A model generated the notes under the pieces. That model did no database searches and had not been told where the DNA came from. It worked only from the letters and a program-made list of their open reading frames with translations. The position numbers and the translations under genes are program-made. From the NCBI GenBank assembly GCA_016196625.1, contig JACPXH010000013.1, positions 4,516 through 68,515 of the forward strand: a stretch of 64,000 nucleotides of DNA. The letters run 5' to 3'. This document shows positions 3,150 through 40,793 of this stretch, in pieces (the stretch's first letter is position 1; every line of letters begins with the position of its first letter). Origin of the DNA: Candidatus Parcubacteria bacterium (GTDB taxonomy: Bacteria > Patescibacteriota > Minisyncoccia > JACPXH01).

Positions 3150-4154
3150 ATGTCAATAGCTAAATTTCTCTATTTCGGCACCCCGGAATTCAGTCGGATT
3201 GTGCTCGAAGAACTCTTGGAAAGCGGCTTTGCGCCGGTTGCGGTTGTTACCGCGCCGGATAAACCGGTTGGCAGAAAACAAGTTTTGACCGAATCGCCAG
3301 TGGCGGCGTTTGCGAAGCAGAACGGTGTTGAAGTTTTGAAGCCGGAGAAGATTAAGCCGCTGGAGTTCGTTGAAAAACTGAAATCGTATCAACCCGATCT
3401 CATGGTGGTGGCGGCCTACGGGAAAATTATCCCGCAGGCAATTTTGGACGTTCCCAAACACGGCGCGATAAATGTGCATCCATCTTTGCTACCCAAGTGG
3501 CGGGGTGCTTCCCCCATCCCCTATGCGATTTTGAACGGCGATCAGAAAACCGGCGTTACGATTATGCTAATGGATGCTGAAATGGATCACGGGGCGATTT
3601 TGGCGCAGGAAGAAGTTGTGCTGAAGGGCGATGAGATAACCGTGGCGCTTACTTCTCGTCTCGCGCGTATCGGCGGCCGGATGCTGACCGAGGTTATCCC
3701 GCGTTGGCTCGCGGGCAAAGTTACGCCGGTTGAACAAGATCATGCCGCGGCGACCTATACGAAAATACTTACTAAAGAAGACGGCCGGATTGATTGGTCA
3801 AAGTCAGCAGCTCAAATCGAGCGGCAAGTGCGCGCGTTTGACCCGTGGCCCGGGGCGTGGGCGGTGTGGGCCAGAGATGGTGAAGCGTCGGTTATCAAGC
3901 TTTTGGCAGCAAGCGCAGTTCCTCATTCTGAGCCGAGGGGGAAGAATCTCGAAGCGCGCCGAGATTCTTCGGCCGCTGCGCGGCCTCAGAATGACGGGGT
4001 GGTAGCGGTGCCCGGCACGGTTACGGCTGCGGGGGTCATCACTGGCGACGGATTACTAGAGCCGGTTACGGTTCAGCTCGCTGGTAAACGCCCGATGGAT
4101 TGGGCGGAGTTTCTTCGCGGGCATGGGGATTTCGTCGGAAGCATTTTGAAATAA
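3150..4154 (+). CDS. fmt: Methionyl-tRNA formyltransferase
   Basis: N-terminal formyltransferase motifs (YFGTPEFS, HPSLLPKWRGASPI) plus a C-terminal domain. Lies downstream of def. Confidence 0.9.
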   Translation: MSIAKFLYFGTPEFSRIVLEELLESGFAPVAVVTAPDKPVGRKQVLTESPVAAFAKQNGVEVLKPEKIKPLEFVEKLKSYQPDLMVVAAYGKIIPQAILDVPKHGAINVHPSLLPKWRGASPIPYAILNGDQKTGVTIMLMDAEMDHGAILAQEEVVLKGDEITVALTSRLARIGGRMLTEVIPRWLAGKVTPVEQDHAAATYTKILTKEDGRIDWSKSAAQIERQVRAFDPWPGAWAVWARDGEASVIKLLAASAVPHSEPRGKNLEARRDSSAAARPQNDGVVAVPGTVTAAGVITGDGLLEPVTVQLAGKRPMDWAEFLRGHGDFVGSILK

Positions 4155-9935: not shown

Positions 9936-10040
9936 TGATTCCAGAGTAGCAGATTCTGTGGGGCGGAACAACGATTGACAGTTTAAATGGTCTTGTGTTC
10001 TCTTCGAGGGGGCGCGCAGACCGCGCCTTATCCGCCTTCG

Positions 10041-10117
10041 TGAAACTCCACGGGCAGAGCCCGTGGTCCTCTGCGACGGCGGGCAGAAAACCGCGGGCGT
10101 AAGCCCGCGGAGCTTCA
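10041..10117. repeat. Tandem pair of REP-like hairpin elements (TGAAACTCCACGGGCagaGCCCGTGG... and CCGCGGGCgtaaGCCCGCGGAGCTTCA)
   Basis: Stems CCACGGGC/GCCCGTGG and CCGCGGGC/GCCCGCGG with AGCTTCA flanks. Related copies at 36906, 36998, 37746, 53336 and 63723. Confidence 0.6.
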
Positions 10118-13813: not shown

Positions 13814-13993
13814 TTAGGACGCGGCCGAGCTATCCGTTGGCGGGAGCCCGTACTTGATTATTTCGAGGTTGCAGCTGCGGTGTTCTCGGCACCACGCCTC
13901 GCAGCGCTGCGCGAGGTCTTCGGTCGGATACCGGAAGCCGCAGGCCTCGCAGGCAAAGAGCGTGCGATTCTGATCGGTGAGCGTTTTGACCAT
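13814..13993 (-). CDS. Small Cys-rich (zinc-ribbon-like) hypothetical protein, 59 aa
   Basis: ATG at 13991-13993 lies 4 nt after the DEAD-box stop. MVKTLTDQNRTLFACEACGFRYP...CEAWCREHRSC. Only the C-terminal portion of the listed 233-aa ORF is judged real. Confidence 0.4.
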   Translation of the reverse strand: MVKTLTDQNRTLFACEACGFRYPTEDLAQRCEAWCREHRSCNLEIIKYGLPPTDSSAAS

Positions 13994-13997
13994 AGAT

Positions 13998-15452
13998 TTA
14001 AGATTTACCCAACGCACCACAAGGCCATCGTCTCCTGCTCGCCTCGCTTCGCGGGCGAAGCGGGCCGGTGGATGAATGGTTGGTGCGTAGGCCTTCGGTG
14101 CGGGGTTCCGCCCCGCCACCGAAATACGAGGTGCCGCCGACTCCCGTCGGCGGGGCTCCACGGTGATGCGGATGGCCGCCAAAGCGGGTGCGGCTGACGC
14201 GGTGGATGGGGCGTTGCAGCGGGTGATGGGTGCGGGCCGGCGGGAGCTCGGGGAGCTTTGATACGGGCAGAGACTTTCGGATGAGCCGTTCAATGCTGCG
14301 AACTTCGCGCTGTTCTTCAGGCAGCACGAACGATATGGCGTGCCCCTCGGCCCCGGCCCGGGCCGTGCGGCCGATCCGGTGAACGTAGTCTTCTGAATGC
14401 GCCGGCAAGTCGTAGTTGAGCACGAGTTCAATCCCCTGTACGTCAATGCCGCGCGCCGCAATGTCGGTAGCCACAAGCACCCGGTATTTACCCGACTTAA
14501 ACCCGTCCAGCGCATCGCGCCGCTGCCCGAGCGAGCGGTTGGAGTGAATTTCGGCCGCGCTGTGGCTCATGGCGCGTACAGCCTTGGTCACGCGTTTGGC
14601 GCCGTATTTCGTACGGGTGAATACCAGCGCCGACCCGGTGTGTTCCGTGAGGATAATCTCGAGCAGGCGGTTTTTCGCTTCGCGCTTTACGATGAAGAGC
14701 TCTTGAGTCACGCGTTCAACCGTGGTGCCGGAAGGTGCGATTTCAATGCGAACGGGGAGTTTCATGTTGGCCGTTGCGACCCTCATGATTGCCGGCGAGA
14801 GCGTGGCCGAAAACAACATGGTCTGGCGATCTTTGGGAACGGCCTGGAGGATTTTTTGGACTTGCGGCAGAAACCCCATGTCGAGCATGCGGTCGGCTTC
14901 GTCGAGGACGAGCATATGGACGTTTCCGAGCGTTACCGTTTTCTGATTCAGGTGGTCAATCAACCGGCCGGGGGTGGCAACGATAATGTGGGGGTTCTTC
15001 CCAATCGCTTGGATCTGCGGCTTCATGGAAGCGCCGCCGATTAAAACCGCTGTGCGCAGCCCGAGTGAGCGGCCGACCGCGTGAAGCATCTCATCAACTT
15101 GGAGCGCCAGTTCTCGCGTGGGCACCAGAACAAGGCCTCGCCCTTTGGTTCGGGCGAGGATTTGAATCATGGGGATACCGAAGGCGAGAGTCTTGCCGGT
15201 TCCAGTTTGCGCCACGCCCACAACGTCTTTGCCCTGCATGGCAATCGGAATCGCTTGACGCTGAATCGGGGTCGGGGTCGCATAGCGGAGCTGTGCGAGA
15301 ATCTCAAGAATTCCCGGCGCGATGCCAAGACCGTAGAAACCAGAAGCGGGTGGTTGGACTGGTTGCCTCATGGAATCATCGGGGCCGATTGGTCTGCGAT
15401 TATCGGGAGCATCACGAGAACCTCTGTGTGGCGTTTGTAAAATTCCACGCAC
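13998..15452 (-). CDS. DEAD-box ATP-dependent RNA helicase with a Gly-rich C-terminal tail
   Basis: Q motif and motif I (PTPIQRQAIP...AQTGTGKT), DEAD, SAT and HRIGRTAR motifs. The last roughly 50 codons are encoded by repeat element A (14006-14161). Confidence 0.85.
   Translation of the reverse strand: MRGILQTPHRGSRDAPDNRRPIGPDDSMRQPVQPPASGFYGLGIAPGILEILAQLRYATPTPIQRQAIPIAMQGKDVVGVAQTGTGKTLAFGIPMIQILARTKGRGLVLVPTRELALQVDEMLHAVGRSLGLRTAVLIGGASMKPQIQAIGKNPHIIVATPGRLIDHLNQKTVTLGNVHMLVLDEADRMLDMGFLPQVQKILQAVPKDRQTMLFSATLSPAIMRVATANMKLPVRIEIAPSGTTVERVTQELFIVKREAKNRLLEIILTEHTGSALVFTRTKYGAKRVTKAVRAMSHSAAEIHSNRSLGQRRDALDGFKSGKYRVLVATDIAARGIDVQGIELVLNYDLPAHSEDYVHRIGRTARAGAEGHAISFVLPEEQREVRSIERLIRKSLPVSKLPELPPARTHHPLQRPIHRVSRTRFGGHPHHRGAPPTGVGGTSYFGGGAEPRTEGLRTNHSSTGPLRPRSEASRRRWPCGALGKS
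14006..14161. repeat. Hairpin-rich repeat element, copy A (156 nt), in-frame inside the 3' end of the DEAD-box helicase CDS
   Basis: About 95% identical to 40600-40728 apart from a 27-nt insertion. Contains a 13-bp stem (CTTCGGTGCGGGG ttcc GCCCCGCCACCGAAG) and an 8-bp stem (CCGCCGAC tccc GTCGGCGG). Confidence 0.6.
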
Positions 15453-18220: not shown

Positions 18221-18282
18221 AGCGGCTCGCTACTCGGCTAGGCTCTGTCCAGTGGAGGCGTGTGCTCGTTTCTCGTGCGTCA

Positions 18283-18314
18283 ACATATTATAATACGATC
18301 GTATTATAATATGT
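18283..18314. promoter_or_regulatory. 32-bp perfect palindrome ACATATTATAATACGATCGTATTATAATATGT overlapping the start codon of the PaaX-like regulator; putative auto-operator
   Basis: Perfect dyad read directly. Half-site ATTATAATACGA. Related sites at 18967, 21361, 37578 and 49594. Confidence 0.5.
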
Positions 18315-18921
18315 GAACGGGAGGGAATCAGAGCGTATGAAGATAAACGGAGCGAAACCGGTGCGCCGGCGGCCGAAGCTACGCGGGCCTTCCCGGGAGT
18401 TCCTGCGGTATCTCGCCGTTGCCGGAGTCGTTGTGGCGATCTCATTGATTGCGCCGCAGCTTCCGGTACAGCTCCTCAAGAACTTCCTGCGCAGACGCCA
18501 CACGTTCGACCCGTCGTCCTTCAGGCAATTTGGTGCGCGTCTGCACAAGCAAGGGCTTGTCAAAATGCAGCAACGAGAAAGCATCCTTACGTTCCGTTTG
18601 ACTGCGGGGGGAGAACGTCTGGCGCAGCAGATCGCGCTCACTAACATCTCGATTGTTCGGCCGCCACGGTGGGATGGTCTTTGGCGGGTCGTCCTCTTTG
18701 ATATCCCGGAGCATGATCGCTTTACGCGGGATTCATTCCGCGCCCTCTTAGAGCGCATCGGATTTGTGAAGATTCAGCGGAGTGTGTTTGCTCATCCCTT
18801 TCCATGCGACAAAGAGATTGAGCTTGCCGTTCGAGTATTCCATCTCGATCGCTCGGTTATTCTGTTTACCGCGACGACTCTGAGCGACGATCGCAGACTC
18901 CGAAGTTTATTTAATCTGTAA
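18313..18921 (+). CDS. PaaX-family-like transcriptional regulator (wHTH + WDGxW domain)
   Basis: PRWDGLWRVVLFDIPEHD is comparable to E. coli PaaX PAWDGKWLLLLSEGLDKS. It is preceded by a wHTH-like segment and followed by GFVKIQRSVF. The start may be the ATG at 18337. Confidence 0.5.
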   Translation: MNGRESERMKINGAKPVRRRPKLRGPSREFLRYLAVAGVVVAISLIAPQLPVQLLKNFLRRRHTFDPSSFRQFGARLHKQGLVKMQQRESILTFRLTAGGERLAQQIALTNISIVRPPRWDGLWRVVLFDIPEHDRFTRDSFRALLERIGFVKIQRSVFAHPFPCDKEIELAVRVFHLDRSVILFTATTLSDDRRLRSLFNL

Positions 18922-19003
18922 GCCGAGCAGATTCTCGATCTGGTTTCTGATTTTCTGTTTGCCAAATTATACTACGATCGTATTATAATGCGTAAACGTT
19001 TGG
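18907..19003. repeat. About 95-bp segment (3' tail of the PaaX-like gene plus downstream near-palindrome 18967-18990), duplicated at 37517-37616
   Basis: About 97% identity to 37517-37616 (copies differ at 2 positions; TTTATTTAATCTGTAAGCCGAGCAGATTCTCGATCTGGTTTCTGATTTTCTGTTTGCCAAATTATACTACGATCGTA[T/G]TATAATGCGTAA[A/G]CGTTT). The site ATTATACTACGATCGTATTATAAT is a 24-bp dyad with one mismatch. Confidence 0.6.
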
Positions 19004-21050: not shown

Positions 21051-21360
21051 TGTCAGTCCTCCGTTCGTCTGCGCGCGCCGTATGTGGCGCTACGGCTGCC
21101 GAGATTCCTCTGCGGCAACGAAGAACAGACTGGCTAGAAATCCCCTCTTCGCTGCCGCAGAAATGGCTTTGGTTCTGAAAACTTGTTTAGCGTACTATAC
21201 TCTTTACTGCATTTACTGTCAATAGGAAAGAGACGGGTTTTCAACCGGCTGTATGTATCGGACGATGAGGTCCTTCGCTTCTTGATAAGCTCGAGGCTCA
21301 GGATGACGCCTTGCGTCACTTCGTCATCCCTCGACGAGCTCGGGACTCCTCACATTTACG

Positions 21361-21386
21361 CATTATAATACGATCGTAGTATAATG
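21361..21386. promoter_or_regulatory. 26-bp near-perfect palindrome CATTATAATACGATCGTAGTATAATG (PaaX-like site family), solo copy
   Basis: One mismatch in the dyad. Lies about 95 bp beyond the 3' end of the giant gene. Confidence 0.45.
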
Positions 21387-21481
21387 TGGCAGACAAAAAA
21401 TTAGAACTAGAGACAGAATTTAAACTCTGTCTGCTTAGCAATGACGCTCCGTGCGGGAGGTGCTGTGAGGCAACTGCGCAA

Positions 21482-24400
21482 CTAAACAGCCGTCGGCGGC
21501 TCGATCGCTTTACCTCCGACGATGAATTTTTTGAGGAAGGTCTCGACGGTCATCTGCAGCGGTCGCTCGCGGCTGGGCGTGATTTTGAGATAGTCTTGAA
21601 CACGTCGGGCAAGCCCGCCGAAATCACGCATAGCCGGAGAGTCTTTTTCAGCGAGTAGTCTTTCCACGGTTAAGGTTTTGAGTTCGGCTAATTTACTCGA
21701 AGGCAGCTCAACGGATTTGAGCAGTTCGGAGAAAGCTCGCTGCTGGCTTCCAAAATCCGGCGAGAGGGTCAGGCGCTGGCGGGTCGCATCGAGCCGCTGC
21801 ATCTCCTCGAAGATGGCGCTCTCGCGCGCTTGGTTGTCGGCGGCGTTGTGCCACTCGTACTCAAGGCGTTGGCGGACGTCGTGGATGCGCTGGAGCACCT
21901 CTTCCTGTTTGATCAAATCCGCCTGTCTAAAGTCGCGGTGCAGCTCGTCCAGCGCGGAGGAAAATTCATCGGGTGGAGCAACGGCAATCTGCTCCACTTG
22001 TTTGGTTATTTCAGCCGAAGGAGCAATTTTCTCTTGTAGCCACTCGGGCACTTCCTTGCCCAAGCGGCGGTAGATGTCGGCCAAGTCCTTCGCCGTGCCC
22101 GTGGCAAGGCCGCTTTCCGGGATTACTTCAAAGTGCGCCGGCGCGCCTTCCGCAGCTGACACAAACTTGACCACGTCCCCGGGATGAACCAAATCAGGCA
22201 GGTGCTGGACCGATTGTTCCCACGCCGCGGCAAACTCTTTGGCCGAAATTTTGCCCTCCCCTGCACCGACCAGAGATTTCGCCGCATCCCAGACGTTGCC
22301 GCCCTGCTCGATGGTTGCGGCCGGCGCCTGAGCGATTGCTTCGGTCAACGCGCTAGGTTCCGTTGCACCGTGCCATTCGCGCATTCCGACGGCCCTGGCC
22401 GCTTCGCGGAGAGCTTCGTTTTGCTGGTCTGATAGCTTAACTGCCTGTTCGATTTCTGCTTCGCTTAAGCCGGCCGGAACAGTTGGCGGAGTTTCCTGAA
22501 ATTGTTTGATCGCTTCTTCGCCCATCCCCTCCGGCTTTCCGTATGCGGCTTCATCATGGCTCGGCGGAGACGTGGCTTCGATGTGTCGAACCTCATCGCT
22601 CAACGAGCCAGAGGCGTGGGGGCCGCGCGTCAAATCTGCTCGGTCAAAACGCATCGCCGTGAACCGTTCGCTCGTATCGTTGAAGTTTTTCCACCAGTTT
22701 TGCGCCGCAGCCTCGGCGGCGCCCGACACGCTTTTCTCGGACAATTCGTCTGTTATAGCGCCAATCCCTTTTCCCTCAAACTCTGTCAGCAGTTCCTCTA
22801 CAACCTCCACGGGCGGCCTCTCGAGCAGGGCGTTGACCGCCGCACCGCCAATGCCGTAGGCAATGGCGAGTTTGCTTGCGGCTTGGAAGAATTCGCCCGT
22901 TCGCTCCAGGCCCGTTCGGCGCCCCCGCGCTTCTTTGGATCGCAGCATCCCGCCGGTCAGACCGTGGAGCGTTTCGGCCGTGCTCGTCAAAAACAGGTCC
23001 TTTGCTTGTGCGATTCTCTTGCCCCGGAATGACGCGGAATGTTCGCCGTCCCACGCGGCTTTTTCGTACGCGCGGCCCGCCTTTGCCCATCGCTCCGCAG
23101 CCGCGGTGGCCGCGTACGCAGCGCCGCGCAGCACCGGCATCCCGCCGAGCACAAGGGCGGTATTCAGCGCTTCGCGAGCCACCTGATAGCCGGAGATTTT
23201 GGTGTTGAGGTAGAGACGCGAAAGCTTGTCGGCGCGGCTCATATCTTCTTGGCGTAACTCTTCGTCGGTCCGTTTGCGTTCGGCCATGATGCTGGCAAGG
23301 CGTTTTCGAAACTCCTTTTTTTCGTGCGCCGGGAGGTACTGCGCCTGCTCAAGCGCCTCTTTGAAACGTTTGACCGTTGGCGCCACCGCCTCGGTGTAGG
23401 CAAGGTTGTCAGGTCGGTAGAGCGCCGTTCGCTCTTCGGCTGCCCGGCGCTCGGCGCGGAGCGTATGAGCCATTTCAGCAAGTGCTGCCTGCACTTCTCG
23501 TCGCTCTCGGCGGACTTTTCCGCGTTGGCGCCCCCACGCAAAAACGTCATAGAAGAATTTCACGCCCAGGAGGGAGCCTGCGGTTTTGGCCGCGGCAGCG
23601 CCAACGTGCTTGAGCACGCCGGCCGCCACCCGACCGGCTTTGGGCCGCTCGCGGCGTCTTTCGGCAGTAGCGTCAGACGGAGGAGCAGACTCGCGCATGC
23701 TGCGGGCAAGGGCATGCACGCGGGCGAGCGCATCCGCGATCTCGGGATCTCCGGGTTGGCGCGCTTCGGCCTTGTCTGCGCCCTGTGCAGTTTCAGCCAA
23801 AACCCGTGCGCGCTCTTCTCCCTCGCTGGCCGCCTCGGTTACGGCCGCTGCGTAGTCGTAGGCTGTCTCGCCATCAGCGGCGCGACTCGGCGAGGGGGCT
23901 TGTCGTTCGACTGGTTCGGTTTGGGTGGGTTCCGGTCGTTCAGGCGTAGCTGGTGGTATCGTTTGTTGCAGCAGCGCCCAGTGACTCTCTTCCGTAGTTT
24001 GTTGTCGTTGCGTTCGGGTCGGGCCGCCGTCGTTTGGAAATTCGTCTGGATGCTGTTCCAGCAGCCGTGAGGCTTGCGTGCGCGCCTCCGCTTCAGTGAA
24101 TACCGAGAGGTCGGCATTGGCCGCAATGACCCGGCGGATTTCATCTGCTTGAGCCGACTGTTCTTCGCGCTGGAGCCGTTCGGTTCGGGTCGGGCCGCTG
24201 GTCGGGTACAGATCCGGTCGGGTGAGGAGACGCTGGATCGCTTCTGCCCGGCTCATATCAACTCCGGCCGCGCGCGCTTCTTCCACCATGCGGTGGATTT
24301 CATCCTCATCAGGCGAAAGCGCCGGCTTTTCCGGCTCTGGCCGCGCTGCGGCGTCGGCCATCGCCGCTTCGTCGGCTGCGACCGTTGTCGTCATCTCACT

Positions 24401-25903
24401 CGCAGCGCGTCTGGCAGCCTTATCCGCAGCTTCTTCTGCGTCCGGCTTTGCCGGTCTGGTTGGCGCGGTTGTCAGCTCTTCGGCCGGGGGTTGGGCGGTA
24501 CCGGCACGGTGTCGCGCCCGCGCGCGGCGAAGCGAGTCTTCGTCCCAAGCCAGATCGCCTTCATCATAAACACGTCCACCCCTTGCCTTTCTTTGATTGC
24601 GCTGTTTTTGTGGTCTGGTTTCGTCTGCGGCCGGTGCTGGCGTTTCCGCTTCGATCGTCGTGAGAACATCCGGCTCTTTTTCTGCTAAGTCGTACGCTTC
24701 CCATTGACTGATGCCGTGCTGTTGAGCTAGACGGTTTACCAGTTCCCAGTGGTGGCGGGTCTGCTCATAGTTGCGGACGTTTGACGGGGCAGGCGGCGCT
24801 TCGCCTGGCTCAGGAGTCGGAGGTGGCGCCGGTTCGGGTTTTGGCTCTGGCGCGGGGGGCGTTTCCGGACCGGCGATTTGCTTGACGGCGTTCAATGAGT
24901 AGTAATGGATAATGTGCTCGCGCGCGGCACGCTCATCTCCGTTTGCGGTGCGCCCGGCCAAGGACCGTATTTCATTTTGGAGCTGCGCCGATTGCTCCGG
25001 CGTGAGCCCTTGGAGGAATGTTTCAATTTCGGTCTGCAGTTCGGGCGGATTTTCCGGATACTCGCGTTTTCCCCGGCGTTGTTCGGCAGGCGCAGGAGCG
25101 GGCGGGCTGACTACGCGCTCGCGCGACCAGTCCGGATAGCGGCGCAAAATCAAAAGACTCGCCTCACGGATCATTTGGGCGCGGTTTTCCGGCGTTACCG
25201 GTATTTCGTGGTTACTCAAAAAGATCTCTGCTTCTTTTTCAAGGAGTGCCTGTGTGTCTGTCGGCAGATTCGCAAGATCGCTCAAGGCATTCTCGAGCGC
25301 AGCTTTTTCCTCCGGAGTTTTGGGCGGGGCCGTCAGTTCAGCAAAAGTTTTCTCCCAGCGCTTTGGTCGTCGCGGCGCGGGAGTGGGCACTGGCTTTTCA
25401 CCGGAAGTCTCCGTGGCGGCAGGGGTTGGTTCGGCAGGCGGAGCTTCTCGGCCAGCCGCGTCGCTTGTCTCTTCGATTTCGGCAGCGTCAGCAGCCGGGG
25501 TACCTTCAGTTGTCTCAATCACGGCCGGGGATGGTAATGGCTCCACGGGTAGTCCGCGGGGCACGCTCCCCGCCCGCCGCGCGCGCCGGGTGTCTGGCTC
25601 TTCGTCAGGCTGACCCCCTATCTCTGGTGAGTCCTTTGCTCTTGGCGGGGGCGGAACGGTTTCGGCACGCTGGAGGAATTTAAGCCGTCTGTCGAGCGCC
25701 ATGAGCTTTATTTTCGCCTCGGGCCTTTCAAGAACGCCGAGCGCCTCGACTCTCCGCATTGCCTCCTCGTACGCTTCCTGCTCTTCGGGCAGGAAAGTTT
25801 CCCCGTTGTTGTTGCGCTTGGCTTCTTCGTAGGCAAACTTAATGAAATCGGCCAACGCCTGTTCATGACTTTCAGTCCACGGGTTTGGGATTTCTCTCGA
25901 CAT
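21482..25903 (-). CDS. Giant Ala/Glu/Pro/Arg-rich low-complexity protein (1473 aa from the ATG at 25901-25903), function unknown
   Basis: Single long ORF. Pro-rich linkers (PAPEPKPEPAPPPTPEPGEAPPAP) and predicted coiled-coil/helical acidic stretches. No signal peptide at MSREIPNPW. The listed start at 26044 would overlap the upstream gene. Confidence 0.65.
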   Translation of the reverse strand: MSREIPNPWTESHEQALADFIKFAYEEAKRNNNGETFLPEEQEAYEEAMRRVEALGVLERPEAKIKLMALDRRLKFLQRAETVPPPPRAKDSPEIGGQPDEEPDTRRARRAGSVPRGLPVEPLPSPAVIETTEGTPAADAAEIEETSDAAGREAPPAEPTPAATETSGEKPVPTPAPRRPKRWEKTFAELTAPPKTPEEKAALENALSDLANLPTDTQALLEKEAEIFLSNHEIPVTPENRAQMIREASLLILRRYPDWSRERVVSPPAPAPAEQRRGKREYPENPPELQTEIETFLQGLTPEQSAQLQNEIRSLAGRTANGDERAAREHIIHYYSLNAVKQIAGPETPPAPEPKPEPAPPPTPEPGEAPPAPSNVRNYEQTRHHWELVNRLAQQHGISQWEAYDLAEKEPDVLTTIEAETPAPAADETRPQKQRNQRKARGGRVYDEGDLAWDEDSLRRARARHRAGTAQPPAEELTTAPTRPAKPDAEEAADKAARRAASEMTTTVAADEAAMADAAARPEPEKPALSPDEDEIHRMVEEARAAGVDMSRAEAIQRLLTRPDLYPTSGPTRTERLQREEQSAQADEIRRVIAANADLSVFTEAEARTQASRLLEQHPDEFPNDGGPTRTQRQQTTEESHWALLQQTIPPATPERPEPTQTEPVERQAPSPSRAADGETAYDYAAAVTEAASEGEERARVLAETAQGADKAEARQPGDPEIADALARVHALARSMRESAPPSDATAERRRERPKAGRVAAGVLKHVGAAAAKTAGSLLGVKFFYDVFAWGRQRGKVRRERREVQAALAEMAHTLRAERRAAEERTALYRPDNLAYTEAVAPTVKRFKEALEQAQYLPAHEKKEFRKRLASIMAERKRTDEELRQEDMSRADKLSRLYLNTKISGYQVAREALNTALVLGGMPVLRGAAYAATAAAERWAKAGRAYEKAAWDGEHSASFRGKRIAQAKDLFLTSTAETLHGLTGGMLRSKEARGRRTGLERTGEFFQAASKLAIAYGIGGAAVNALLERPPVEVVEELLTEFEGKGIGAITDELSEKSVSGAAEAAAQNWWKNFNDTSERFTAMRFDRADLTRGPHASGSLSDEVRHIEATSPPSHDEAAYGKPEGMGEEAIKQFQETPPTVPAGLSEAEIEQAVKLSDQQNEALREAARAVGMREWHGATEPSALTEAIAQAPAATIEQGGNVWDAAKSLVGAGEGKISAKEFAAAWEQSVQHLPDLVHPGDVVKFVSAAEGAPAHFEVIPESGLATGTAKDLADIYRRLGKEVPEWLQEKIAPSAEITKQVEQIAVAPPDEFSSALDELHRDFRQADLIKQEEVLQRIHDVRQRLEYEWHNAADNQARESAIFEEMQRLDATRQRLTLSPDFGSQQRAFSELLKSVELPSSKLAELKTLTVERLLAEKDSPAMRDFGGLARRVQDYLKITPSRERPLQMTVETFLKKFIVGGKAIEPPTAV

Positions 25904-25920
25904 GATCGTGCTGATTGCGG

Positions 25921-26250
25921 TTACCTGTCTCTCCGTTCCTTCAACGCTCGCTCCAGTTCGGAAACTGCGGAGGTTGCTTGCTCGTTTATCTGTTTCTCGC
26001 GAGCACTGCGCTCCGCGGCGAATTGCCTCAACCGTTCCAACCACTGCGCATCAATAGCGGCTGTGGCTGCGTCCAACACTCGTTTCTCGAGTAAGTCAGA
26101 GAAACGCATAAGCTGTTCCGGGGTCATCTCGGGCAGCATGGCGAGCCACGCCTGCTTTTCGTCTTCCGGCAAGGGGGCCGTAGCCAACAGGAGGCCGAGC
26201 TTCCTGCCGAGCAAGCCAGCAAGGGTTTGGACTTTTTCAACGCTTGGCAT
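25921..26250 (-). CDS. Coiled-coil hypothetical protein (109 aa)
   Basis: ATG at 26248-26250 (MPSVEKVQTLAG...). Stop lies 17 nt before the giant-gene start. Confidence 0.4.
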   Translation of the reverse strand: MPSVEKVQTLAGLLGRKLGLLLATAPLPEDEKQAWLAMLPEMTPEQLMRFSDLLEKRVLDAATAAIDAQWLERLRQFAAERSAREKQINEQATSAVSELERALKERRDR

Positions 26251-28593: not shown

Positions 28594-31020
28594 TTACCGC
28601 CCGGTCCCCTGCTCTGTGGGTGGAGCTGTGGTGAGCGCGGGCATTTGGGAAAGTCGGGTCCGAACTTCTTGTTCGACCGCCGCGCGGTCCCGGCCGTATA
28701 TTGAGCTCGACCACTGCCGAACTGCGTGTGCCGCCGCCGGATCCCCTTTGCGCGGCAGGTTGATCACAAAGTTAAAGGGCGAAGTGGTTTTGCCTTGAGA
28801 CATGAGCCGCGCGTAGGCGTTGAAGTTATCAAGGTTGATGAGATCAGATGCGGCAAAGGCCGGCGCAAACTGGGGTTCGATGGATTCGGCGTCTTCCACT
28901 CCCACCCGAAACGAAACCAAGGATCCCACGTTGCCGAAGACCGCGTTTTTGATTTCGTCCGTGAGTTGTTTGATGAATTGATGCGCGAGCGTGAGATTGA
29001 GCCGGTACTTGCGTGCTTCGGACAGGATTGTCGCAATGGACGGGGTCGCGAAGCTCTGGAATTCGTCCAAGTAGAGGTAAAAATCGGACCGCGCCTCCTC
29101 GGCTGCGTCGGTTCGGCTCAAAGCCGCCAAAAGCAGTTTGCCCACGAGAATCAGGCCAAGGAGGGAGCTGTTGAGTTCGCCCAGACGCCCTTTGGTGAGG
29201 TTAACGAGGAGAATCTTGCGTTCGTCCATCACTTGGCGAAAATTAAATGAGCTTTGCTCTTGGGCGATGATGGGGCGCATGATGTCGTTGGCAATGAACA
29301 GGTTCATCTTTGAAGTGATGTAGGGCACCATGTTCGCGAGCGCCGCTTCCCCGCCGGCTTTCTCCGCCTCCAGCTCCCAGAAATTCTTGATTACCATGTT
29401 CGTCGTGCGTGAGAGTTTCAACTTGCGAAACTCTTTATCCGCGAGCACCCGCGGGATTTCCAGGAGCGTATTGCCGGAGGCAGGATCTTCCATGACCAGC
29501 AGCACGGCGTTGCGCATGTATTGTTCAAACATGGGCCCGCCGGTAACTTTCAGATCGTAGAGCTTGTCAAAAATGGCGATGAGTTCATTCGCGATGAAGG
29601 TTTTCTGCTCGGGGTGCGCCGGGTCATATTCAAGCATGTTAAGCCCGAGGGGCCGTTCGATGTCGCCCGGGTTGAAATAGATTACTTCTTCCCGGCGGCT
29701 CGCGGGCACGAGTCCGAGGAGGTCGTCGGCCAAATCTCCGTGCGGGTCTATAAGCGCAAGGCCCTCTCCGGCCTCAATGTCTTGACGCGCGAGTTCTTTG
29801 ATGAGCGACGATTTGCCGGTTCCAGTTTGGCCTATAATATAGAGGTGTCTCCGGCGGTCTTCGCGCGCGATACGGATTACGGTTTCTCTGCCCCGAAAGA
29901 CGTTGCGCCCCAACATCAGACCTTCAAGGGGAAGGTTGAGCGGCGGCTCGGCCTGACGGGCTTTGAGCGCGTGCAGTTTGGGTGCTTCGAGCGAGGGGGT
30001 CGCAAAGTGATACATGCTACTCAACTCATCGGCACTCAAGATAAGCGCATCGCGTGAACGAAAGAGACGCCATGAAAACGCAAAGAGAAGCGACTCCAAC
30101 CGGCCGCCCTTGCGCCGCTTAAATGAGAGCGAGTTGGTCGGGGGAGCGCTCAAGGGGGCAAAGGCGGTTTCCATCTGTTCGAGCAGCGCTTTCGCCCGAG
30201 TCTCTTCTGCCGCCGAGGCCACCACCCGAACATTGGCTGCAAAGACGGGCGTGCGGGCCTTGCGCTCGATGGCCTCCACCGCTTCGGGGTCAACGGGTTC
30301 GTTCTTGCTTTCGCCGGGGCCTCGGGTCGAGTTTGCTTTGAGCTTTTGGGCTTGGGCCACGCTTTCGGCGCCCCAGCGTTTGGGAGCGGGTTGGAGCAGA
30401 ATTTGGATGGCCGCACCCTCCCCTTCTTTGGCAATTTTGCTTAAGGCCGTGGCAATCGCGCTTAAGGGATCCACTTCAAGCTCACGGAAGGTGCGCAGCG
30501 ACAGGCGGCTGTTTTTGACCTCAAGGATTGAGGCTTCGTGTCTGCCGTGGGGATTGAACAGGTTATAGTCCGGTACCGCCTCGATTACGGCTTCCGGGAA
30601 AAAGCCGTGGATGTGTTTTTCGAACGCTTCAGCCAGCCGCCTCGGGAAGGCCGCGAAAAACTGAATTTCCTCGCCCACATGGGGGACGGCCAGTTCAAAG
30701 GCAACCGTGGGCATCCCCCGGAGGATCGCCCGCCACCACTTCTCTTTTAGAAACGTCAGGCTCGCGTAGAACTGACTCATGACGGCGAGCCCCTCGCGCA
30801 TTCGTTCCACTGCCGATCGATCCGACTCCAGGGGACGGTTCGGAAGCGCAATCGCGAAGAGGGCGAGGTTCAGGGCGCGCGCGGTCTCCCCTCGGCGTCG
30901 GAGCGTAACTAAACCCCAAGCCGCCGCAGTGCCGCCCACCGTAAGGACGGCGAGGGTTATGAGGATGAGCCAGAGGAGGAAAGAGAGATCGAGGGGCACG
31001 GTCAAAAGTTCAAATGCCAA
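28594..31020 (-). CDS. Membrane-anchored VirB4/TraG/HerA-like P-loop NTPase (AAA_10/DUF87-type)
   Basis: Two N-terminal TM helices. Walker A GQTGTGKSS followed by LIDPHGDL, Walker B FYLYLDEFQ, then LTLAHQ. TTG start at 31018-31020 lies inside an AT-rich heptad leader. Confidence 0.55.
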   Translation of the reverse strand: MAFELLTVPLDLSFLLWLILITLAVLTVGGTAAAWGLVTLRRRGETARALNLALFAIALPNRPLESDRSAVERMREGLAVMSQFYASLTFLKEKWWRAILRGMPTVAFELAVPHVGEEIQFFAAFPRRLAEAFEKHIHGFFPEAVIEAVPDYNLFNPHGRHEASILEVKNSRLSLRTFRELEVDPLSAIATALSKIAKEGEGAAIQILLQPAPKRWGAESVAQAQKLKANSTRGPGESKNEPVDPEAVEAIERKARTPVFAANVRVVASAAEETRAKALLEQMETAFAPLSAPPTNSLSFKRRKGGRLESLLFAFSWRLFRSRDALILSADELSSMYHFATPSLEAPKLHALKARQAEPPLNLPLEGLMLGRNVFRGRETVIRIAREDRRRHLYIIGQTGTGKSSLIKELARQDIEAGEGLALIDPHGDLADDLLGLVPASRREEVIYFNPGDIERPLGLNMLEYDPAHPEQKTFIANELIAIFDKLYDLKVTGGPMFEQYMRNAVLLVMEDPASGNTLLEIPRVLADKEFRKLKLSRTTNMVIKNFWELEAEKAGGEAALANMVPYITSKMNLFIANDIMRPIIAQEQSSFNFRQVMDERKILLVNLTKGRLGELNSSLLGLILVGKLLLAALSRTDAAEEARSDFYLYLDEFQSFATPSIATILSEARKYRLNLTLAHQFIKQLTDEIKNAVFGNVGSLVSFRVGVEDAESIEPQFAPAFAASDLINLDNFNAYARLMSQGKTTSPFNFVINLPRKGDPAAAHAVRQWSSSIYGRDRAAVEQEVRTRLSQMPALTTAPPTEQGTGR

Positions 31021-31088
31021 AATCCAAATGCCAAATCAAACTTAAAGTTCAAAATCCAAAATCGCTTCGGCATTTGGGCTTTGGATTT
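31021..31088. promoter_or_regulatory. AT-rich heptad-repeat leader (units TTTGRMW) abutting the ATPase start
   Basis: Shares an about 55-nt block (AAATGCCGAAGCGATTTTGGATTTTGAACTTTAAGTTTGATTTG) with 33745-33821. Related repeats at 31488-31551, 49621-49675 and 60941-61124. Confidence 0.5.
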
Positions 31089-31806: not shown

Positions 31807-31999
31807 GATTGCTTAGTCTAGCACAGTCCGGGGCCTCGACTTACTTTAATTTATCCACACGGCGGCATGCAGGAGCGTGCTAGACTGGAAGCGGAAAAAC
31901 TCCTTTTTGGATCGTACGGGATTGCTTCGCCCGCCTCCGCCAGTTGGCGGATGGCGGGCTCGCAATGACGGCCGACAGCGGCTCTCGCTGAACTCTATT

Positions 32000-33694
32000 A
32001 TGGATAAGCGCCAACGAACTTGGATTTTCCTTGGCATCATTCTTGTAGTTGCCATCTTTTTTCGCTTCTGGCAGTTTACCGAATTTCCTCCCGGGTTGTA
32101 TCCGGACGAGGCGGTCAATGGCGTAAATGGTCTCCAAGCGGTTGAGACCGGCAACTATCAAGTTTTCTACCCGGACAACAACGGCCGCGAGGGGCTGTGG
32201 ATGAACGTGCAGGGATTAGTCTCAAAGGCGCTCGGCCCTTCGCCCTGGGCTCTGCGGGTGCCCAGCATGGTGATAGGCGTGCTCACGGTTCTCGGCCTTT
32301 TCTTATTAGTGCGCGAGCTAGTCGGCGACGAGGTGGCTTTGGTTTCGGCAGCGCTGCTGGCGACTTCCTTTTGGCACACGGTGTTTTCCCGCATGGCCTT
32401 CCGGGCCATTCTATTGCCGTTCGTGCTTACCTATCTTTTCTACTTTTTGGTTCGGGGATTGAAACGCGGGCGCGGATCAGATTTTGTCGGAGCCGGTTTT
32501 TTCTTCGGGCTGGGTTTTCACACCTATATTTCTTACCGGATCGTGCCGCTGCTGCTGGTTGCGCTGTTCGGCGTACTCATTTGGTTAAAGCGGCGCAAGG
32601 TTTGGCAGCCAATATTCTGCGCGCCGTGTGCGGTTAGTCTTATGCTGATTGTGGGGCTTGTGGTGGCAACTCCCATGCTTCTTTATTTGATTCAGCACCC
32701 GGAAGATTGGAGCGGTCGGACCGGCGGCATTTCTGTCTGGAGCGCGCAAAGTCCTCTCAAGGCCGTTCTCATCTCCACGGCCGCAACATTAGGGCAGTTT
32801 AACGTGCTCGGGGATCGCAACTGGCGGCATAACTTCCCCGGCCGGCCGGAGCTGTTTTGGCCCGCCGGGATTATGATGCTGGTAGGGCTTGCGATAACGT
32901 TTCGGACAGCGTTCCGAATATTCCGCGCAAAGCCAGCCGCGCCACCCTCGGAGGAAACCGTTCGGCCATGCCACTCTAATATACTAGTATATGATAGTGG
33001 AAACGGCTGGCTCGTCATTTTCGGGGCGTGGCTCATGCTCGGATGGTTCTTTGCCTTGATGGTGCCGGCGATTCTCACGCGCGAAGGCCTGCCCCATGCG
33101 CTGCGCACCATCGGCACTATCCCGCCCGCGTACGCGTTTGCCGGGGTTGGCACGTGGCTCACGTGGAAGGCGTTGCGGCGCAAGGTTCTCGGTGGGCTCG
33201 AAGGATTTTTGGAACGCGATCCGAATCTGGAGTTTCTGCGATCCAGATTGAACCGTATTCGGCGGTGGTTCGGGGTGCTGCTCGCGACTTTTCTTCTGTG
33301 GGTGGCGGGCAGCGAAGGGGTTACGTACTTTGTGCGTTGGGCGCCCCACCCGCGCGTGGCCGACGCTTTTGCGGCTCACCAGACCGAGCTCGCCAACTAC
33401 ATCAACGCCGCGGAGCCCGACATTTCGATCTACGTGGTGGTTAACGCCCCCAGTCTCAACGTCAACGGCATCTCGCTCAACGCCCAACCCCTCGTGTATC
33501 TGAATCACGGCCGGCCCAACTTGTTTTTCGTAACTCCAGAGACCATCGGTTCGATCCCCCGCGATCTGCATCGGGCCGAGATTATCCTGCTCGATTCGGA
33601 TCGGCAGTTTCTGGCCCAACTCCAGCGTGAGCGTTATCCCCAAGGAAAGACCAAGGCAGTCTCGGGGACGATCGTGCCGTTGGTGATTCCGTAA
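32000..33694 (+). CDS. Glycosyltransferase family 39 (ArnT/PMT-like) polytopic membrane protein
   Basis: N-terminal loop motif GLYPDEAVNGVNG (DE motif) after the first TM, with many TM helices. ATG at 32000. Confidence 0.7.
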   Translation: MDKRQRTWIFLGIILVVAIFFRFWQFTEFPPGLYPDEAVNGVNGLQAVETGNYQVFYPDNNGREGLWMNVQGLVSKALGPSPWALRVPSMVIGVLTVLGLFLLVRELVGDEVALVSAALLATSFWHTVFSRMAFRAILLPFVLTYLFYFLVRGLKRGRGSDFVGAGFFFGLGFHTYISYRIVPLLLVALFGVLIWLKRRKVWQPIFCAPCAVSLMLIVGLVVATPMLLYLIQHPEDWSGRTGGISVWSAQSPLKAVLISTAATLGQFNVLGDRNWRHNFPGRPELFWPAGIMMLVGLAITFRTAFRIFRAKPAAPPSEETVRPCHSNILVYDSGNGWLVIFGAWLMLGWFFALMVPAILTREGLPHALRTIGTIPPAYAFAGVGTWLTWKALRRKVLGGLEGFLERDPNLEFLRSRLNRIRRWFGVLLATFLLWVAGSEGVTYFVRWAPHPRVADAFAAHQTELANYINAAEPDISIYVVVNAPSLNVNGISLNAQPLVYLNHGRPNLFFVTPETIGSIPRDLHRAEIILLDSDRQFLAQLQRERYPQGKTKAVSGTIVPLVIP

Positions 33695-33821
33695 GTTCAA
33701 AGTTCAAAGTTCAAATTTCAAAGCTCAAATGTCAAATCCAAAGCCCAAATGCCGAAGCGATTTTGGATTTTGAACTTTAAGTTTGATTTGAAATTTGGAT
33801 TTTGTCATTTGGATTTCAGGT
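33695..33821. repeat. AT-rich heptad repeats in palindromic arrangement ((GTTCAAA)3 TTTCAAA GCTCAAA TGTCAAA ... then the inverse TTTTGGATTTTGAACTTTAAGTTTGATTTG...)
   Basis: Tandem 7-mers read directly. The right half is a leader for the downstream GT39 gene. Confidence 0.6.
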
Positions 33822-36736: not shown

Positions 36737-36905
36737 TGCCCTCCTCCTTTCGCGCATCTCGCGCAGCATCACCACGCAAGTGCAGCGCTGGATATTGCGA
36801 ACCCGGTGTGGTTTTCGAGGAACACTCTTACTACTATGATACACCGCCTCAGCATTATGTCAATCTCAAATTGAAAAATGTCTTGGCTGGCGGCAAATTC
36901 TTTTA

Positions 36906-37022
36906 CCCGCCGTCGCAGAAAGCCACGGCCGTGAGGCCGTGGATGAATGCGTAAGCAGAGTCCTTCCGAAGCTCGAAGGACAAAGGAGGATGCTTTGGCG
37001 GGCGTAAGCCCGCGGAGCTTTA
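36906..37022. repeat. Cluster of REP-like hairpins (CCACGGCCgtgaGGCCGTGG; GCGGGCgtaaGCCCGCGGAGCTT)
   Basis: Same family as the elements at 10041-10117, here with the first unit inverted. Confidence 0.55.
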
Positions 37023-37099
37023 TAAAAAGTTAAGAGCCGCCGCGAAGCGATGACTCTGAAGGACGACTCTCTTGGGCGGTCGTCCGATTGCCCGAAGTC

Positions 37100-37522
37100 T
37101 CACGGGAGAGCCGCGAGGACCTTTTCCACCACCTTGCGATGGTTCGGAAAAAAATCCTGCTTGGCGAGGATGTCCCGGGGCTTGAACACCCCGATTTCCT
37201 CGCTCTCGTCTCCCTCGGACTTCATCTGCGGGAGGGCCGTGAGGTTTGCCCGAAAGATGGTGAGGATGTGGCTGCCCTTGTCCTCGGAGTGGACGACTGC
37301 GAGGTCATTCTCCGACAAGGACACACCAATCTCCTCTTCCAACTCCCGAATGGCGCAACCCCGGGCCGTTTCCGTTGCTTCGCCCCTACCGCCGGGCAAC
37401 TTCCAGAAAACTGGTGCCGGCTTTTTGGGGTCCCGAATGAGCGGGATGCCCTGGGGCGTGACGAGGAGAACTGCAACTGCGTGTCCTTTTTTTGGTGCTG
37501 TTTTCGAGAACGTAGATTTTAT
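37100..37522 (-). CDS. NUDIX hydrolase with no canonical start codon (possibly 5'-disrupted)
   Basis: Nudix box GGRGEATETARGCAIRELEEEIGV. The open frame extends upstream (..KGHAVAVLLVTPQGIPLIRDPKK..) to an in-frame stop at 37523-37525 with no ATG or GTG. The only listed start is the TTG at 37399, which falls inside the fold. Confidence 0.45.
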   Translation of the reverse strand: MKSTFSKTAPKKGHAVAVLLVTPQGIPLIRDPKKPAPVFWKLPGGRGEATETARGCAIRELEEEIGVSLSENDLAVVHSEDKGSHILTIFRANLTALPQMKSEGDESEEIGVFKPRDILAKQDFFPNHRKVVEKVLAALP

Positions 37523-37616
37523 TTAATCTGTAAGCCGAGCAGATTCTCGATCTGGTTTCTGATTTTCTGTTTGCCAAATTATACTACGATCGTAGTATAA
37601 TGCGTAAGCGTTTTGG
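37517..37616. repeat. Second copy of the 95-bp PaaX-gene-tail + palindrome segment (perfect 24-bp palindrome ATTATACTACGATCGTAGTATAAT at 37578-37601)
   Basis: Near-identical to 18907-19003. Abuts the 5' end of the NUDIX reading frame. Confidence 0.6.
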
Positions 37617-38776: not shown

Positions 38777-39229
38777 ATGCCGACGCGGAGAGGACGAAGG
38801 GTACTCTGTTCCATTCAGCCGAGACAGGGAGCTGTTTCTACGGAGGCGTTCGAGCTTGTTCGCGAGGGGGCGGGCGAACTCTTGAACGCCCTCGGCATTG
38901 CTCCGCTGCGCAACGGTCGAGAGCGCGTGCACGCGGTTCTGTGTGACCCTGGCCGCACCATGGTGTTTGTCCACGTTTGGAACGTGGACGTGGGGGCGCT
39001 TCGACCGGCGGTGGTTGCCCAGAAACTGGAGGGCACGCCGTTCCAAGAGATATCCTCTTTGGACGGGGGATATTCTCGCCGCTTCAGCTGGCAGGCGGGG
39101 CCATGGACTTTGAAGTTCATCTTGTGGCCCTCGCTTGCACCCGACGACCTCAACTTCTCGCCGAAATACGATGCGCGTTGGGGCATCTTCTGGATCGGTC
39201 AGGAAGTGCCGGCCCCGGCCGCTCGCTAG
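38777..39229 (+). CDS. Hypothetical protein (150 aa)
   Basis: Strong SD AAGGAGGAGGA before the ATG. Confidence 0.45.
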   Translation: MPTRRGRRVLCSIQPRQGAVSTEAFELVREGAGELLNALGIAPLRNGRERVHAVLCDPGRTMVFVHVWNVDVGALRPAVVAQKLEGTPFQEISSLDGGYSRRFSWQAGPWTLKFILWPSLAPDDLNFSPKYDARWGIFWIGQEVPAPAAR

Positions 39230-40545
39230 GCTTCGGAGTTATGGGCCCTGCGCAGACCACGCGCCGGGCTCTTCTTTTTCGCAGTGCGCTTGCGCGGGAT
39301 TACACTGAAACCAAGGTAAGGCTGGAGCGCTTTTGGCATTGCCACTGACCCGTCTTTTTTCTGAAAGTTTTCTAAAATCGCAATGATGGCCCGCGAGGTG
39401 GCGATGGCGGTACCGTTCAAAGTGTGTACATAGCCTGTTTCACCGCTGGCTTTCCGATATTTGATGCCGAGACGCCGGGCCTGATAGTCGGTCGTATTCG
39501 AGGTTGAGGTAACCTCGCCCCAATCGTTTCGTCCGGGCATCCAGGCTTCAAGATCAAACTTTCGAGCCGCCTGGGCCCCCAAGTCCCCGGTACACATTTC
39601 CACCACGCGGTATGGGATGCCCAGTCCCTGCCAGAGCGCTTCTTCAAGCGCAAGCAACTCCGCGTGCAATTTGGGCGAATCTTCCGGTTTGATGTACACA
39701 AACATTTCCACCTTTGTGAATTGGTGCAGGCGATAGAGGCCCTTTGAGTACCGGCCGTAGCCGCCGGCCTCTTGCCGGAAACAGTGCGAGTAGCCGGCAT
39801 AACGTTTGGGCAGGGAGTCTTCGGGCAAGATTTCATCAGCATGGATGCCGGCCAGCGTAACTTCGGCGGTGGCAATCAAGCCAAGATTGGAATTTTCAAT
39901 AACGTACGTCTGCGCTTCCGGCCCCCGCGGCAGATAGCCGGTCCCAAGGTAGAACCGGTCGCGAGCAAGATCGGGGGTAAGCCAAAGCGCAAAGCCCTTT
40001 TTGGCAAGAAAATCGAGGGCATAGCGCACGAGCGCCAGTTCAAGTAGGATGCCTTCATTCTTGAGATAGCAGAAATCAGCGCCCGCAACTTTACTACCGG
40101 CCTCGAAGTCAAGAATACCGAGCGCGGTTCCGAGCTCAAGATGATCTTTCGGCTGGAAGAGGAACGTCGGTTTCTTCCCCACCTCGCGCAGCGCTTGGTT
40201 TTGCGATTCGTCTTTCCCGACCGGCACGGTTTCTTGGGGCAGGTTCGGTAAAGTAAGCAGTATCTCCTCCACCGCTTTGGCCGCGGCCGCAAGCCCTTTT
40301 TCTTTTTCTGCCAAGAGACCGCTCAAGCGTTTCGCTTCGGTAAGTAGCGTCTCGTCTTTCCCCAGCCGGCTGATTTCTGTGGAAACTTTGTTTTTGCCGT
40401 GTCGCAACTCTTCAACTTCCTTGATGAGCTGACGATGCCCGGCATCAGTTTTGAGAAATTTGTCGGTATCGAACGCAAAGCCTTTCTTTTTCAGGCCAGC
40501 TTTCACGTAATCTGGCTGTTTGCGGATAAGGTGGATGTCGAGCAT
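39226..40545 (-). CDS. serS: Seryl-tRNA synthetase
   Basis: N-terminal coiled-coil arm and class II core motifs (e.g. RYAGYSHCFRQEAG, GLYRLHQFTKVEMF). Confidence 0.9.
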   Translation of the reverse strand: MLDIHLIRKQPDYVKAGLKKKGFAFDTDKFLKTDAGHRQLIKEVEELRHGKNKVSTEISRLGKDETLLTEAKRLSGLLAEKEKGLAAAAKAVEEILLTLPNLPQETVPVGKDESQNQALREVGKKPTFLFQPKDHLELGTALGILDFEAGSKVAGADFCYLKNEGILLELALVRYALDFLAKKGFALWLTPDLARDRFYLGTGYLPRGPEAQTYVIENSNLGLIATAEVTLAGIHADEILPEDSLPKRYAGYSHCFRQEAGGYGRYSKGLYRLHQFTKVEMFVYIKPEDSPKLHAELLALEEALWQGLGIPYRVVEMCTGDLGAQAARKFDLEAWMPGRNDWGEVTSTSNTTDYQARRLGIKYRKASGETGYVHTLNGTAIATSRAIIAILENFQKKDGSVAMPKALQPYLGFSVIPRKRTAKKKSPARGLRRAHNSEA

Positions 40546-40599
40546 ACGTGAGGAATATAGAATCTCGAATTATGAATCACGAATAACGGCTTAAATTCT

Positions 40600-40728
40600 T
40601 ACCCAACGCACCAGAAGGCCATCGGCTCCTGCCGGTAGATGAATGGTTGGTGCGTAGGCCTTCGGTGCGGGGTTCCGCCCCGCCACCGAAGTACGAGGTG
40701 CCGCCGACTCCAGTCGGCGGGGCTCCAC
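40600..40728. repeat. Hairpin-rich repeat element, copy B (129 nt), in the serS upstream region
   Basis: Near-identical to 14006-14161, including the stop-codon-proximal end. Remains open in the DEAD-helicase frame. Confidence 0.6.
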
Positions 40729-40763: not shown

Positions 40764-40793
40764 CCATTCTAATGTATTAATACATTAGAATGG
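40764..40793. promoter_or_regulatory. 30-bp perfect palindrome CCATTCTAATGTATTAATACATTAGAATGG, third copy of the TrpR-like site
   Basis: Perfect dyad. Lies 14 nt after the NUDIX-HD gene stop and about 220 nt upstream of the serS start. Confidence 0.5.

Follow-up and report, generated by a model that had tools for sequence, protein, structure and literature searches.

The DNA analysed here is a 64,000-nt stretch (the window) of contig JACPXH010000013.1 from a Candidatus Parcubacteria assembly (GCA_016196625.1), and our subject is a short repeat that occurs in it twice, on the same strand, in direct orientation and 26.6 kb apart. Copy A (14009-14161, + strand; 153 nt, equivalent to 51 codons) lies at the 3' end of the gene for a DEAD-box helicase (13998-15371, - strand; 457 aa). 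The genes around it are all on the - strand, in the order helicase, copy A, a 59-aa Cys-rich open reading frame (ORF; 13814-13993, - strand) and a DsbD-like gene; the Cys-rich ORF, which begins 4 nt past the helicase stop and provides the downstream flank of copy A, has a weak match to DUF7128. Copy B (40603-40728, + strand; 126 nt) lies between a NUDIX-HD gene and serS (39226-40545, - strand), the order of these - strand genes being NUDIX-HD gene, 78-nt spacer, copy B, 53-nt spacer and serS, such that the element ends 53 nt upstream of the serS ATG. The original prediction, made from the sequence alone, described two copies of about 95% identity that differ by a 27-nt indel, and this description holds: outside a 27-nt insertion carried by copy A alone (approximately 14037-14063), 121 of 126 positions are identical (96.0%). 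No third copy was found within the window by blastn, and a covariance model run across it with filters off scores copy B at 159 bits and copy A at 132 bits, with the next best match at 19.6 bits. We conclude that both repeats are very probably non-autonomous elements of the IS200/IS605 family, of the kind known as palindrome-associated transposable elements (PATEs) or miniature inverted-repeat transposable elements (MITEs), and that the + strand of the window is their active 'top' strand.

Read on the + strand, the unit is preceded by TTAC and comprises CC..(12 nt)..A-A-N-G, an 8-bp hairpin, ATGAAT, an internal hairpin, GGTG, a right-end hairpin (CCGCCGAC-loop-GTCGGCGG), a GGCT spacer and, as its last bases, CCAC. 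In copy A, the TTAC of the left flank, the putative target and left cleavage-site tetranucleotide, occupies 14005-14008. The left hairpin (14025-14071; arms 14025-14032 and 14064-14071, with a mismatch at 14031) begins 16 nt inside the left end, and directly 5' of its foot is a guide-like AAGG (14021-14024), which corresponds in position and sequence to the left guide AAAG of IS608 (PMC5934647). It is followed by the ATGAAT motif (14072-14077), invariant or nearly so in the alignment of subfamilies, and by the internal hairpin 2 (14094-14123), the '13-bp stem' of the original prediction, at whose position every subfamily has a hairpin of different sequence. The right end (14130-14161) consists of a guide-like GGTG (14130-14133), the hairpin CCGCCGAC-TCCC-GTCGGCGG (14134-14153), the GGCT spacer and CCAC (14158-14161). 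Copy B has the same parts, namely, TTAC in its left flank (40599-40602), the guide AAGG (40615-40618), the left hairpin (40619-40638, with one C:A mismatch at 40637), ATGAAT (40639-40644), hairpin 2 (40661-40690), GGTG (40697-40700), the right hairpin (40701-40720) and CCAC (40725-40728), all on the + strand. The 27-nt insertion of copy A is itself palindromic (about GCTCGCCTCGCTTCGCGGGCGAAGCGG); it enlarges the apical loop of the left hairpin and forms a stem of its own, and it is absent from copy B and from nine other copies of the candidate phyla radiation (CPR) type, eight of which are 126 nt long and one approximately 127 nt. With both the loop insertion and the stem mismatch, copy A may have lost its mobility.

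The + strands of the two copies fold more stably than shuffled sequence (z = -5.2 and -4.9), and the corresponding values for the - strand are weaker (z = -3.7 and -3.6). Each unit has three hairpins rather than the two of the original prediction. The accompanying view that the loops differ between the copies and the stems are preserved is true for just one of the five substitutions, that at 14145, which alone lies in a loop; two others (14031 in copy A, and 14070/40637 in copy B) each disrupt one pair of the left-end hairpin. In the helicase frame, three of the five differences are synonymous, the indel preserves the register and, as had been observed, both copies remain open. However, all three - strand frames are stop-free in both copies, so an open helicase frame is uninformative. 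We rejected a protein-coding reading of the element, as all three frames are open and the homologues of the encoded peptide are read-through ORFs only.

The repeat belongs to a dispersed family. The search began with a profile of the two translated copies, which returned a third copy in a Sungbacteria contig and two ORFs from the Joint Genome Institute (JGI) with the first hairpin only, and continued with that hairpin (the right-end one on the + strand) as a degenerate pattern. The pattern found 15 loci in species-representative genomes, distributed among Fibrobacterota (three in one metagenome-assembled genome, MAG), Desulfobacteraceae, a 'delta proteobacterium' MAG (six copies), Chitinivibrionales, two Patescibacteria and the sister genome of the window, and a further 81 loci in JGI metagenomes. 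Altogether, public genomes and metagenomes yielded approximately 100 further copies, representing 71 distinct sites after de-duplication, with CPR bacteria, Desulfobacteraceae, Fibrobacterota and Chitinivibrionales as hosts. A genome scan with the 22-mer TGGTTGGTGCGTAGGCCTTCGG gave zero matches because this segment is variable. The copies range from 117 to 226 nt through the insertion or loss of whole hairpins; a single MAG holds up to six, copies within a genome are near-identical, and the multi-copy hosts include MFD04408.bin.2.120 and MFD03726.bin.1.27. Between the sister genome and the window, identity is 97% for the element (L023 against copy B, at a different site) but 82% for the orthologous helicase DNA. 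Three loci at which the left end is not nearby (L044, L074 and L093) were set aside as variants or truncations rather than full insertion sequences. In one metagenomic copy (L068), a hairpin element of about 70 nt is nested inside the repeat (at about 4045-4120).

All complete copies start and end at identical positions, beyond which the flanks are unrelated. These sharp ends refine the limits first proposed for the two units (14006-14161 and 40600-40728) to 14009-14161 and 40603-40728, with the right-hand boundaries unchanged. They also contradict the proposal that homology extends through the helicase stop codon (13998-14000): the similarity ends at TTAC 14005-14008, 5 nt before that codon, and only four of the eight bases beyond it match. 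ORF clustering across approximately 100 loci revealed no recurrent protein family beside the copies, the neighbouring genes being unrelated and the orientation of the element relative to them mixed; one candidate, a '15-locus family' of neighbour ORFs, proved to consist of ORFs that read through the element itself. Searches of phage, plasmid and viral collections gave no match, and a full-text literature search with the hairpin sequence returned nothing relevant.

The left flank is strongly constrained. Across the 71 sites, the tetranucleotide that precedes the element is TTAC in 58 and CTAC in 10; position -5 is T in 42 of 62 first-pass sites, the conservation fades by -6, and the flank is random beyond that. 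Where the flank is TTAC, the tetranucleotide at the foot of the left hairpin is AAAG (36 copies), AAGG (12), AATG (4) or AACG (1), and its third base is, thus, free, which fits the position of a non-canonical contact in IS608. By contrast, the nine copies with AGAG all follow CTAC and none follows TTAC, at nine sites whose flanks are unrelated; there is one exception, in the opposite direction. Pairing of guide position 2 with target position -4 would predict just this covariation.

The hairpins covary too, as examination of the relatives suggested in the original prediction has confirmed. In the left hairpin, compensatory double changes affect six of the eight pairs; 94% of cells are paired, compared with 36-49% when the partners are slid out of register; shuffle controls agree. 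In the right hairpin, one stem pair covaries from G:C to A:T, the remaining pairs being fixed by the search pattern. GGTG and CCAC are compatible with the IS608 pairing scheme, but they scarcely vary and the bait partly fixed them; an ordinary extension of the stem through GGT and GCT is an alternative reading. Terminal inverted repeats are lacking, as the two ends match at only 3-4 of 14 positions, and so are target duplications: the distribution of repeat lengths between flanks equals that of shuffled pairs, and none of the 71 right flanks starts with TTAC. Suggestively, the cumulative GC skew climbs along the window; this would place the + (top) strand on the lagging-strand template (PMC5027513), but two mini copies of a related family (described below) are on the other strand.

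These observations allow the history of the helicase locus to be reconstructed. As predicted, the helicase ORF (13998-15452) runs through copy A, and the tail is part of the NCBI annotation, the protein being 100% identical to an annotated Candidatus Parcubacteria MAG protein (P0001, 457 aa). Its last 53 codons comprise 51 derived from the element and two for an apparently ancestral KS, followed by the stop, such that the - strand reads ...R, then GAPPTG...CGALG from the element, then KS and stop. The inserted tail corresponds to residues 405-455 of the annotated protein and to residues 432-482 of the 484-aa ORF. Conservation of this tail in orthologues had been proposed as a check, and it is not observed: the 14 orthologues have variable Arg/Pro-rich tails without similarity to the element-encoded peptide, and the closest of them (P0002; 89% identical) stops where the element starts. 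At the two loci that encode P0002 (L001 and L002), the element is absent downstream of the helicase, and a peptide search found the element peptide in no other helicase. We infer that copy A is a 153-nt in-frame insertion two codons upstream of the helicase stop. Under this model, TTAC (GTAA on the - strand) is host sequence, and so the ancestral gene would have ended ...CAT CAC C/GT AAA TCT TAA (the slash marks the insertion point), encoding ...HPHHRKS and stop; the predicted empty-site junction has ...CATCACC joined directly to GTAAATCTTAA. The element would thus have landed at the extreme 3' end of the gene and, because the unit is a multiple of three in length and has no stop on the helicase strand, would have produced a 51-codon extension of an already variable tail. 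It is conceivable, if unlikely, that the Gly/Arg-rich peptide of 51 residues that it donated has been retained as a working helicase tail.

Copy B, similarly, would have landed in the spacer upstream of serS. Neither copy has a promoter-like or terminator-like site that we could find. Rfam 15 was searched, at its gathering thresholds and again at permissive expect values, with the two window copies and long variants from five loci, and gave no match at the element to a T-box or other serS leader, a riboswitch, a small RNA or an IS605-associated RNA motif: only tRNAs pass, and the best partial matches in the element score 13-14 bits, against gathering thresholds of at least 39. Because there is no Rfam match, and because the neighbouring genes in other genomes are unrelated, we see no evidence for a role of the element in a serS leader RNA. 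An identical serS was found only in a Logan contig, which stops within the element, a typical repeat-induced assembly break. Between the NUDIX-HD stop and copy B, at 40765-40794, is a perfect 30-nt palindrome, CCATTCTAATGTATTAATACATTAGAATGG.

If the element moves as IS608 does, a Y1 transposase would act on single-stranded DNA by the 'peel-and-paste' route. A Y1 (HUH) enzyme encoded elsewhere would bind the subterminal hairpins and cut 3' of two tetranucleotides, the TTAC that flanks the left end and the CCAC that terminates the right end; the top strand would be excised as a circle, with the predicted junction ...GGCTCCAC/CCAACGCACC, and pasted 3' of another TTAC. Recognition of the target would fall to the 4 nt directly 5' of the left hairpin, which base-pair with it, and not to the protein. 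IS608 itself inserts 3' of TTAC, which is also its left cleavage site, and has the guide AAAG directly 5' of the left hairpin foot, with A+16 pairing to T-3 and A+17 to T-4; on its right side, the guide is GAAT and the cleavage site TCAA, and it has neither inverted repeats nor duplications (PMC3201880, PMC5934647). The present element resembles IS608 of Helicobacter pylori in its insertion 3' of TTAC on one strand, in the lack of terminal inverted repeats and target duplication, and in the subterminal hairpins at both ends. It also shares the guide (AAAG or AAGG) 5' of the left hairpin foot, with guide position 2 matched to target -4 and position 1 to target -3, the C after the cleavage site, the conserved A-T 3' of the left hairpin and a right cleavage site a few nucleotides 3' of the right hairpin. 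In IS608, bases 3' of the left imperfect palindrome (IPL) form base triplets (PMC5934647), and ATGAAT may be their counterpart. The differences are that the element has no tnpA or tnpB and is unrelated to IS608 in sequence; that its guide lies at +13..+16 rather than +16..+19; that it ends in CCAC, with the last base 8 nt past the hairpin foot, whereas TCAA of IS608 lies 10 nt 3' of the foot; and that its right hairpin has no obvious extrahelical base and it contains an extra conserved internal hairpin.

Several points weigh against this interpretation. Pfam identified no Y1_Tnp or OrfB_IS605 domain among the 63 ORFs of the window, neither a Y1 transposase nor TnpB is a recurrent neighbour of any copy, and the transposase partner is, accordingly, an assumption. 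A tblastn search with IS608 and IS200 TnpA queries gave nothing in the window and a single match elsewhere, a truncated IS200-type tnpA near one copy (L010); this remnant (2032-2376) is 190 nt from the copy, matches over its first ~47 residues alone and apparently belongs to a separate element, and it shows only that the IS200-type family is present in one host. Moreover, every relative came from a search baited with the right-end hairpin, which makes the invariance of the hairpin and of GGTG/CCAC partly circular, and the flank base at -4 might in principle travel with the element instead of being selected anew each time it inserts. Neither window copy yielded an empty site: for copy A, synteny in the sister-genome loci L001 and L002 breaks down directly past the helicase, which prevented alignment, and for copy B, the closest serS orthologues reach 69% identity at most. 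Additionally, hairpin 2 and other motifs of the interior show more conservation than the known requirements of IS608-type transposition would account for, and the excess of G:T wobbles on the top strand (14 cells versus 7 on the bottom strand) is modest.

A rival reading, which we consider unlikely, is that the element is primarily a structured RNA, be it a cis-acting leader or mRNA stabilizer, a small RNA gene or an omega-RNA scaffold for TnpB in trans; such a role could coexist with mobility. The folds are stable in all four strand comparisons (z from -3.6 to -5.2), and the hairpins change sequence yet keep their structure across subfamilies, including hairpin 2, which is not obviously needed by IS608-type transposition. 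Moreover, many PATEs are reported to encode omega-RNAs, TnpB guides that are used in trans (PMC10055086). Yet neither the short nor the long variants match Rfam, promoter-like and terminator-like sites are lacking at both copies, the neighbours are unrelated and the orientations mixed, and no TnpB is nearby, either in the Pfam scans of the window or among the neighbours of other copies. RNA secondary structure also leaves unexplained both the covariation of flank and guide and the non-helical relation between GGTG and CCAC. A more specific form of the idea, to which we give a similarly low probability, is that hairpin 2 and the right hairpin form a guide-RNA scaffold that reads into the right flank on behalf of a TnpB-type nuclease acting in trans; if true, there would be a cross-phylum family of gene-less 'guide-only' transposons that reaches CPR bacteria. 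The cis-RNA alternative in the original prediction, thus, came close in one respect, as a REP-like repeat (REP, repetitive extragenic palindrome) is indeed read through as coding sequence, and fell short in the other, as nothing supports an RNA leader for serS; an ORF extended by insertion, together with many dispersed copies, argues against any special cis-RNA.

The same chemistry and logic, with a hairpin and an adjacent tetranucleotide, characterize the REPs and bacterial interspersed mosaic elements (BIMEs) that are maintained by domesticated REP-associated tyrosine transposases (RAYTs), and it is conceivable, though rather improbable, that the element is a repeat of this type and not a conventional IS200/IS605 derivative. 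Like REP/BIME sequences, it has a hairpin with a recognition tetranucleotide, Y1-related chemistry, intergenic locations and multiple copies, and the one-hairpin minis of the related family and the solo hairpins in the window look REP-like. However, REPs are single short palindromes of 20-40 nt, often in inverted pairs and specific to a lineage, whereas the main family spans 117-226 nt and has two different ends in direct orientation, an IS608-like layout and a cross-phylum distribution; near-identical ends across phyla favour horizontal spread over domestication, and no RAYT-like gene was seen. The other proposal of the original prediction, which derives copy B from a relic duplication at the helicase 3' end, is rejected, and so is the notion that the repeats are attL and attR of a 26.6-kb island. 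Two direct repeats 26.6 kb apart, one of which overlaps a gene 3' end, are compatible with either, but the similarity runs precisely up to the element boundaries and does not enter helicase-specific sequence, the tails of the orthologues are unrelated to it, and the unit recurs at 71 unrelated sites in other DNA. The interval between the copies carries core genes (helicase, GyrI-like, cold-shock protein, tRNA-Gln, dnaX, glycosyltransferases and serS) and no integrase, and we therefore rejected the island. A false lead is thereby removed, in that no shared RNA regulator joins the helicase to serS and no gene end has been duplicated.

As a gene-less IS200/IS605-type element, the repeat finds its closest parallels in the PATEs of Haloquadratum and the PATE-like elements of Geobacillus stearothermophilus, which likewise combine IS200/IS605-type ends with the absence of genes, occur in multiple copies and are presumed to be mobilized in trans (PMC3119063, PMC10055086). 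It differs from them in its hosts (CPR bacteria, Desulfobacterota and Fibrobacterota) and in having no sequence similarity to them and no identified cognate autonomous insertion sequence. With classical MITEs such as Correia, ERIC and RUP, it shares small size, lack of coding function, hairpin formation, dispersal and occasional read-through as coding sequence; unlike them, it has neither terminal inverted repeats nor target-site duplications. It would represent a previously undescribed gene-less family of IS200/IS605 type, without a counterpart in Rfam or in the phage and plasmid collections that we searched, whose near-identical ends are shared among CPR bacteria, Desulfobacterota and Fibrobacterota. 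It would also provide a natural example of the IS608 rule that the guide reads the target, as a single A-to-G change in the guide accompanies the change from TTAC to CTAC at nine independent sites. On a practical level, elements of this kind distort annotation, by lengthening proteins in frame (the helicase, a zwf-like protein and an MFS transporter) and by breaking assemblies. In the Sungbacteria contig, the element is annotated as the N-terminus of the zwf-like protein, and elsewhere it forms an N-terminal extension of the MFS transporter ORF; the loci of these read-through cases are L004 (2015-2235) and L022 (521-2119).

Another gene-less family, related to the first and similarly organized, is present in the window at 36901-37023 (+), 53180-53362 (+), 10040-10087 (-) and 63722-63769 (-), and the window therefore has at least six such elements. 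Its left end is CCGCCGTCGCAGA..G, followed by the hairpin CCACGGGC/GCCCGTGG and then ATGAATGCG, and its right tail is AGCTTCAC; it includes one-hairpin minis of 44 nt and REP-like solo hairpins, of which two end at 10118 and 37773 (+). The same relation of guide to flank applies, with AAAG after TTAC at 36901 and AGGG after CTAC at 53180 and 63766.

The window contains other repeats. A palindrome based on TTATACTACGATCGTAGTATAA occurs five times (18281-18324, 18960-19003, 21356-21399, 37572-37615 and 49587-49630), and two of these copies bracket a gene with a PaaX/Cas2-like domain (18313-18921); a 96-nt repeat that is 98% identical between 18906-19001 and 37518-37613 contains one such palindrome. 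The five palindromes might serve as a set of operators or constitute another small repeat family. An AT-rich inverted repeat of 83 nt (31006-31088 and 33734-33816; 94% complementary) brackets a 2.6-kb segment with a PMT_2 glycosyltransferase gene (31877-33694), and AT-rich repeats related to it are found at 60947-61122. Finally, a 1520-aa ORF (21482-26044, - strand) has no Pfam match, and a VirD4/TraG-like coupling ATPase of 808 aa (28594-31020, - strand) is encoded amid otherwise housekeeping genes.

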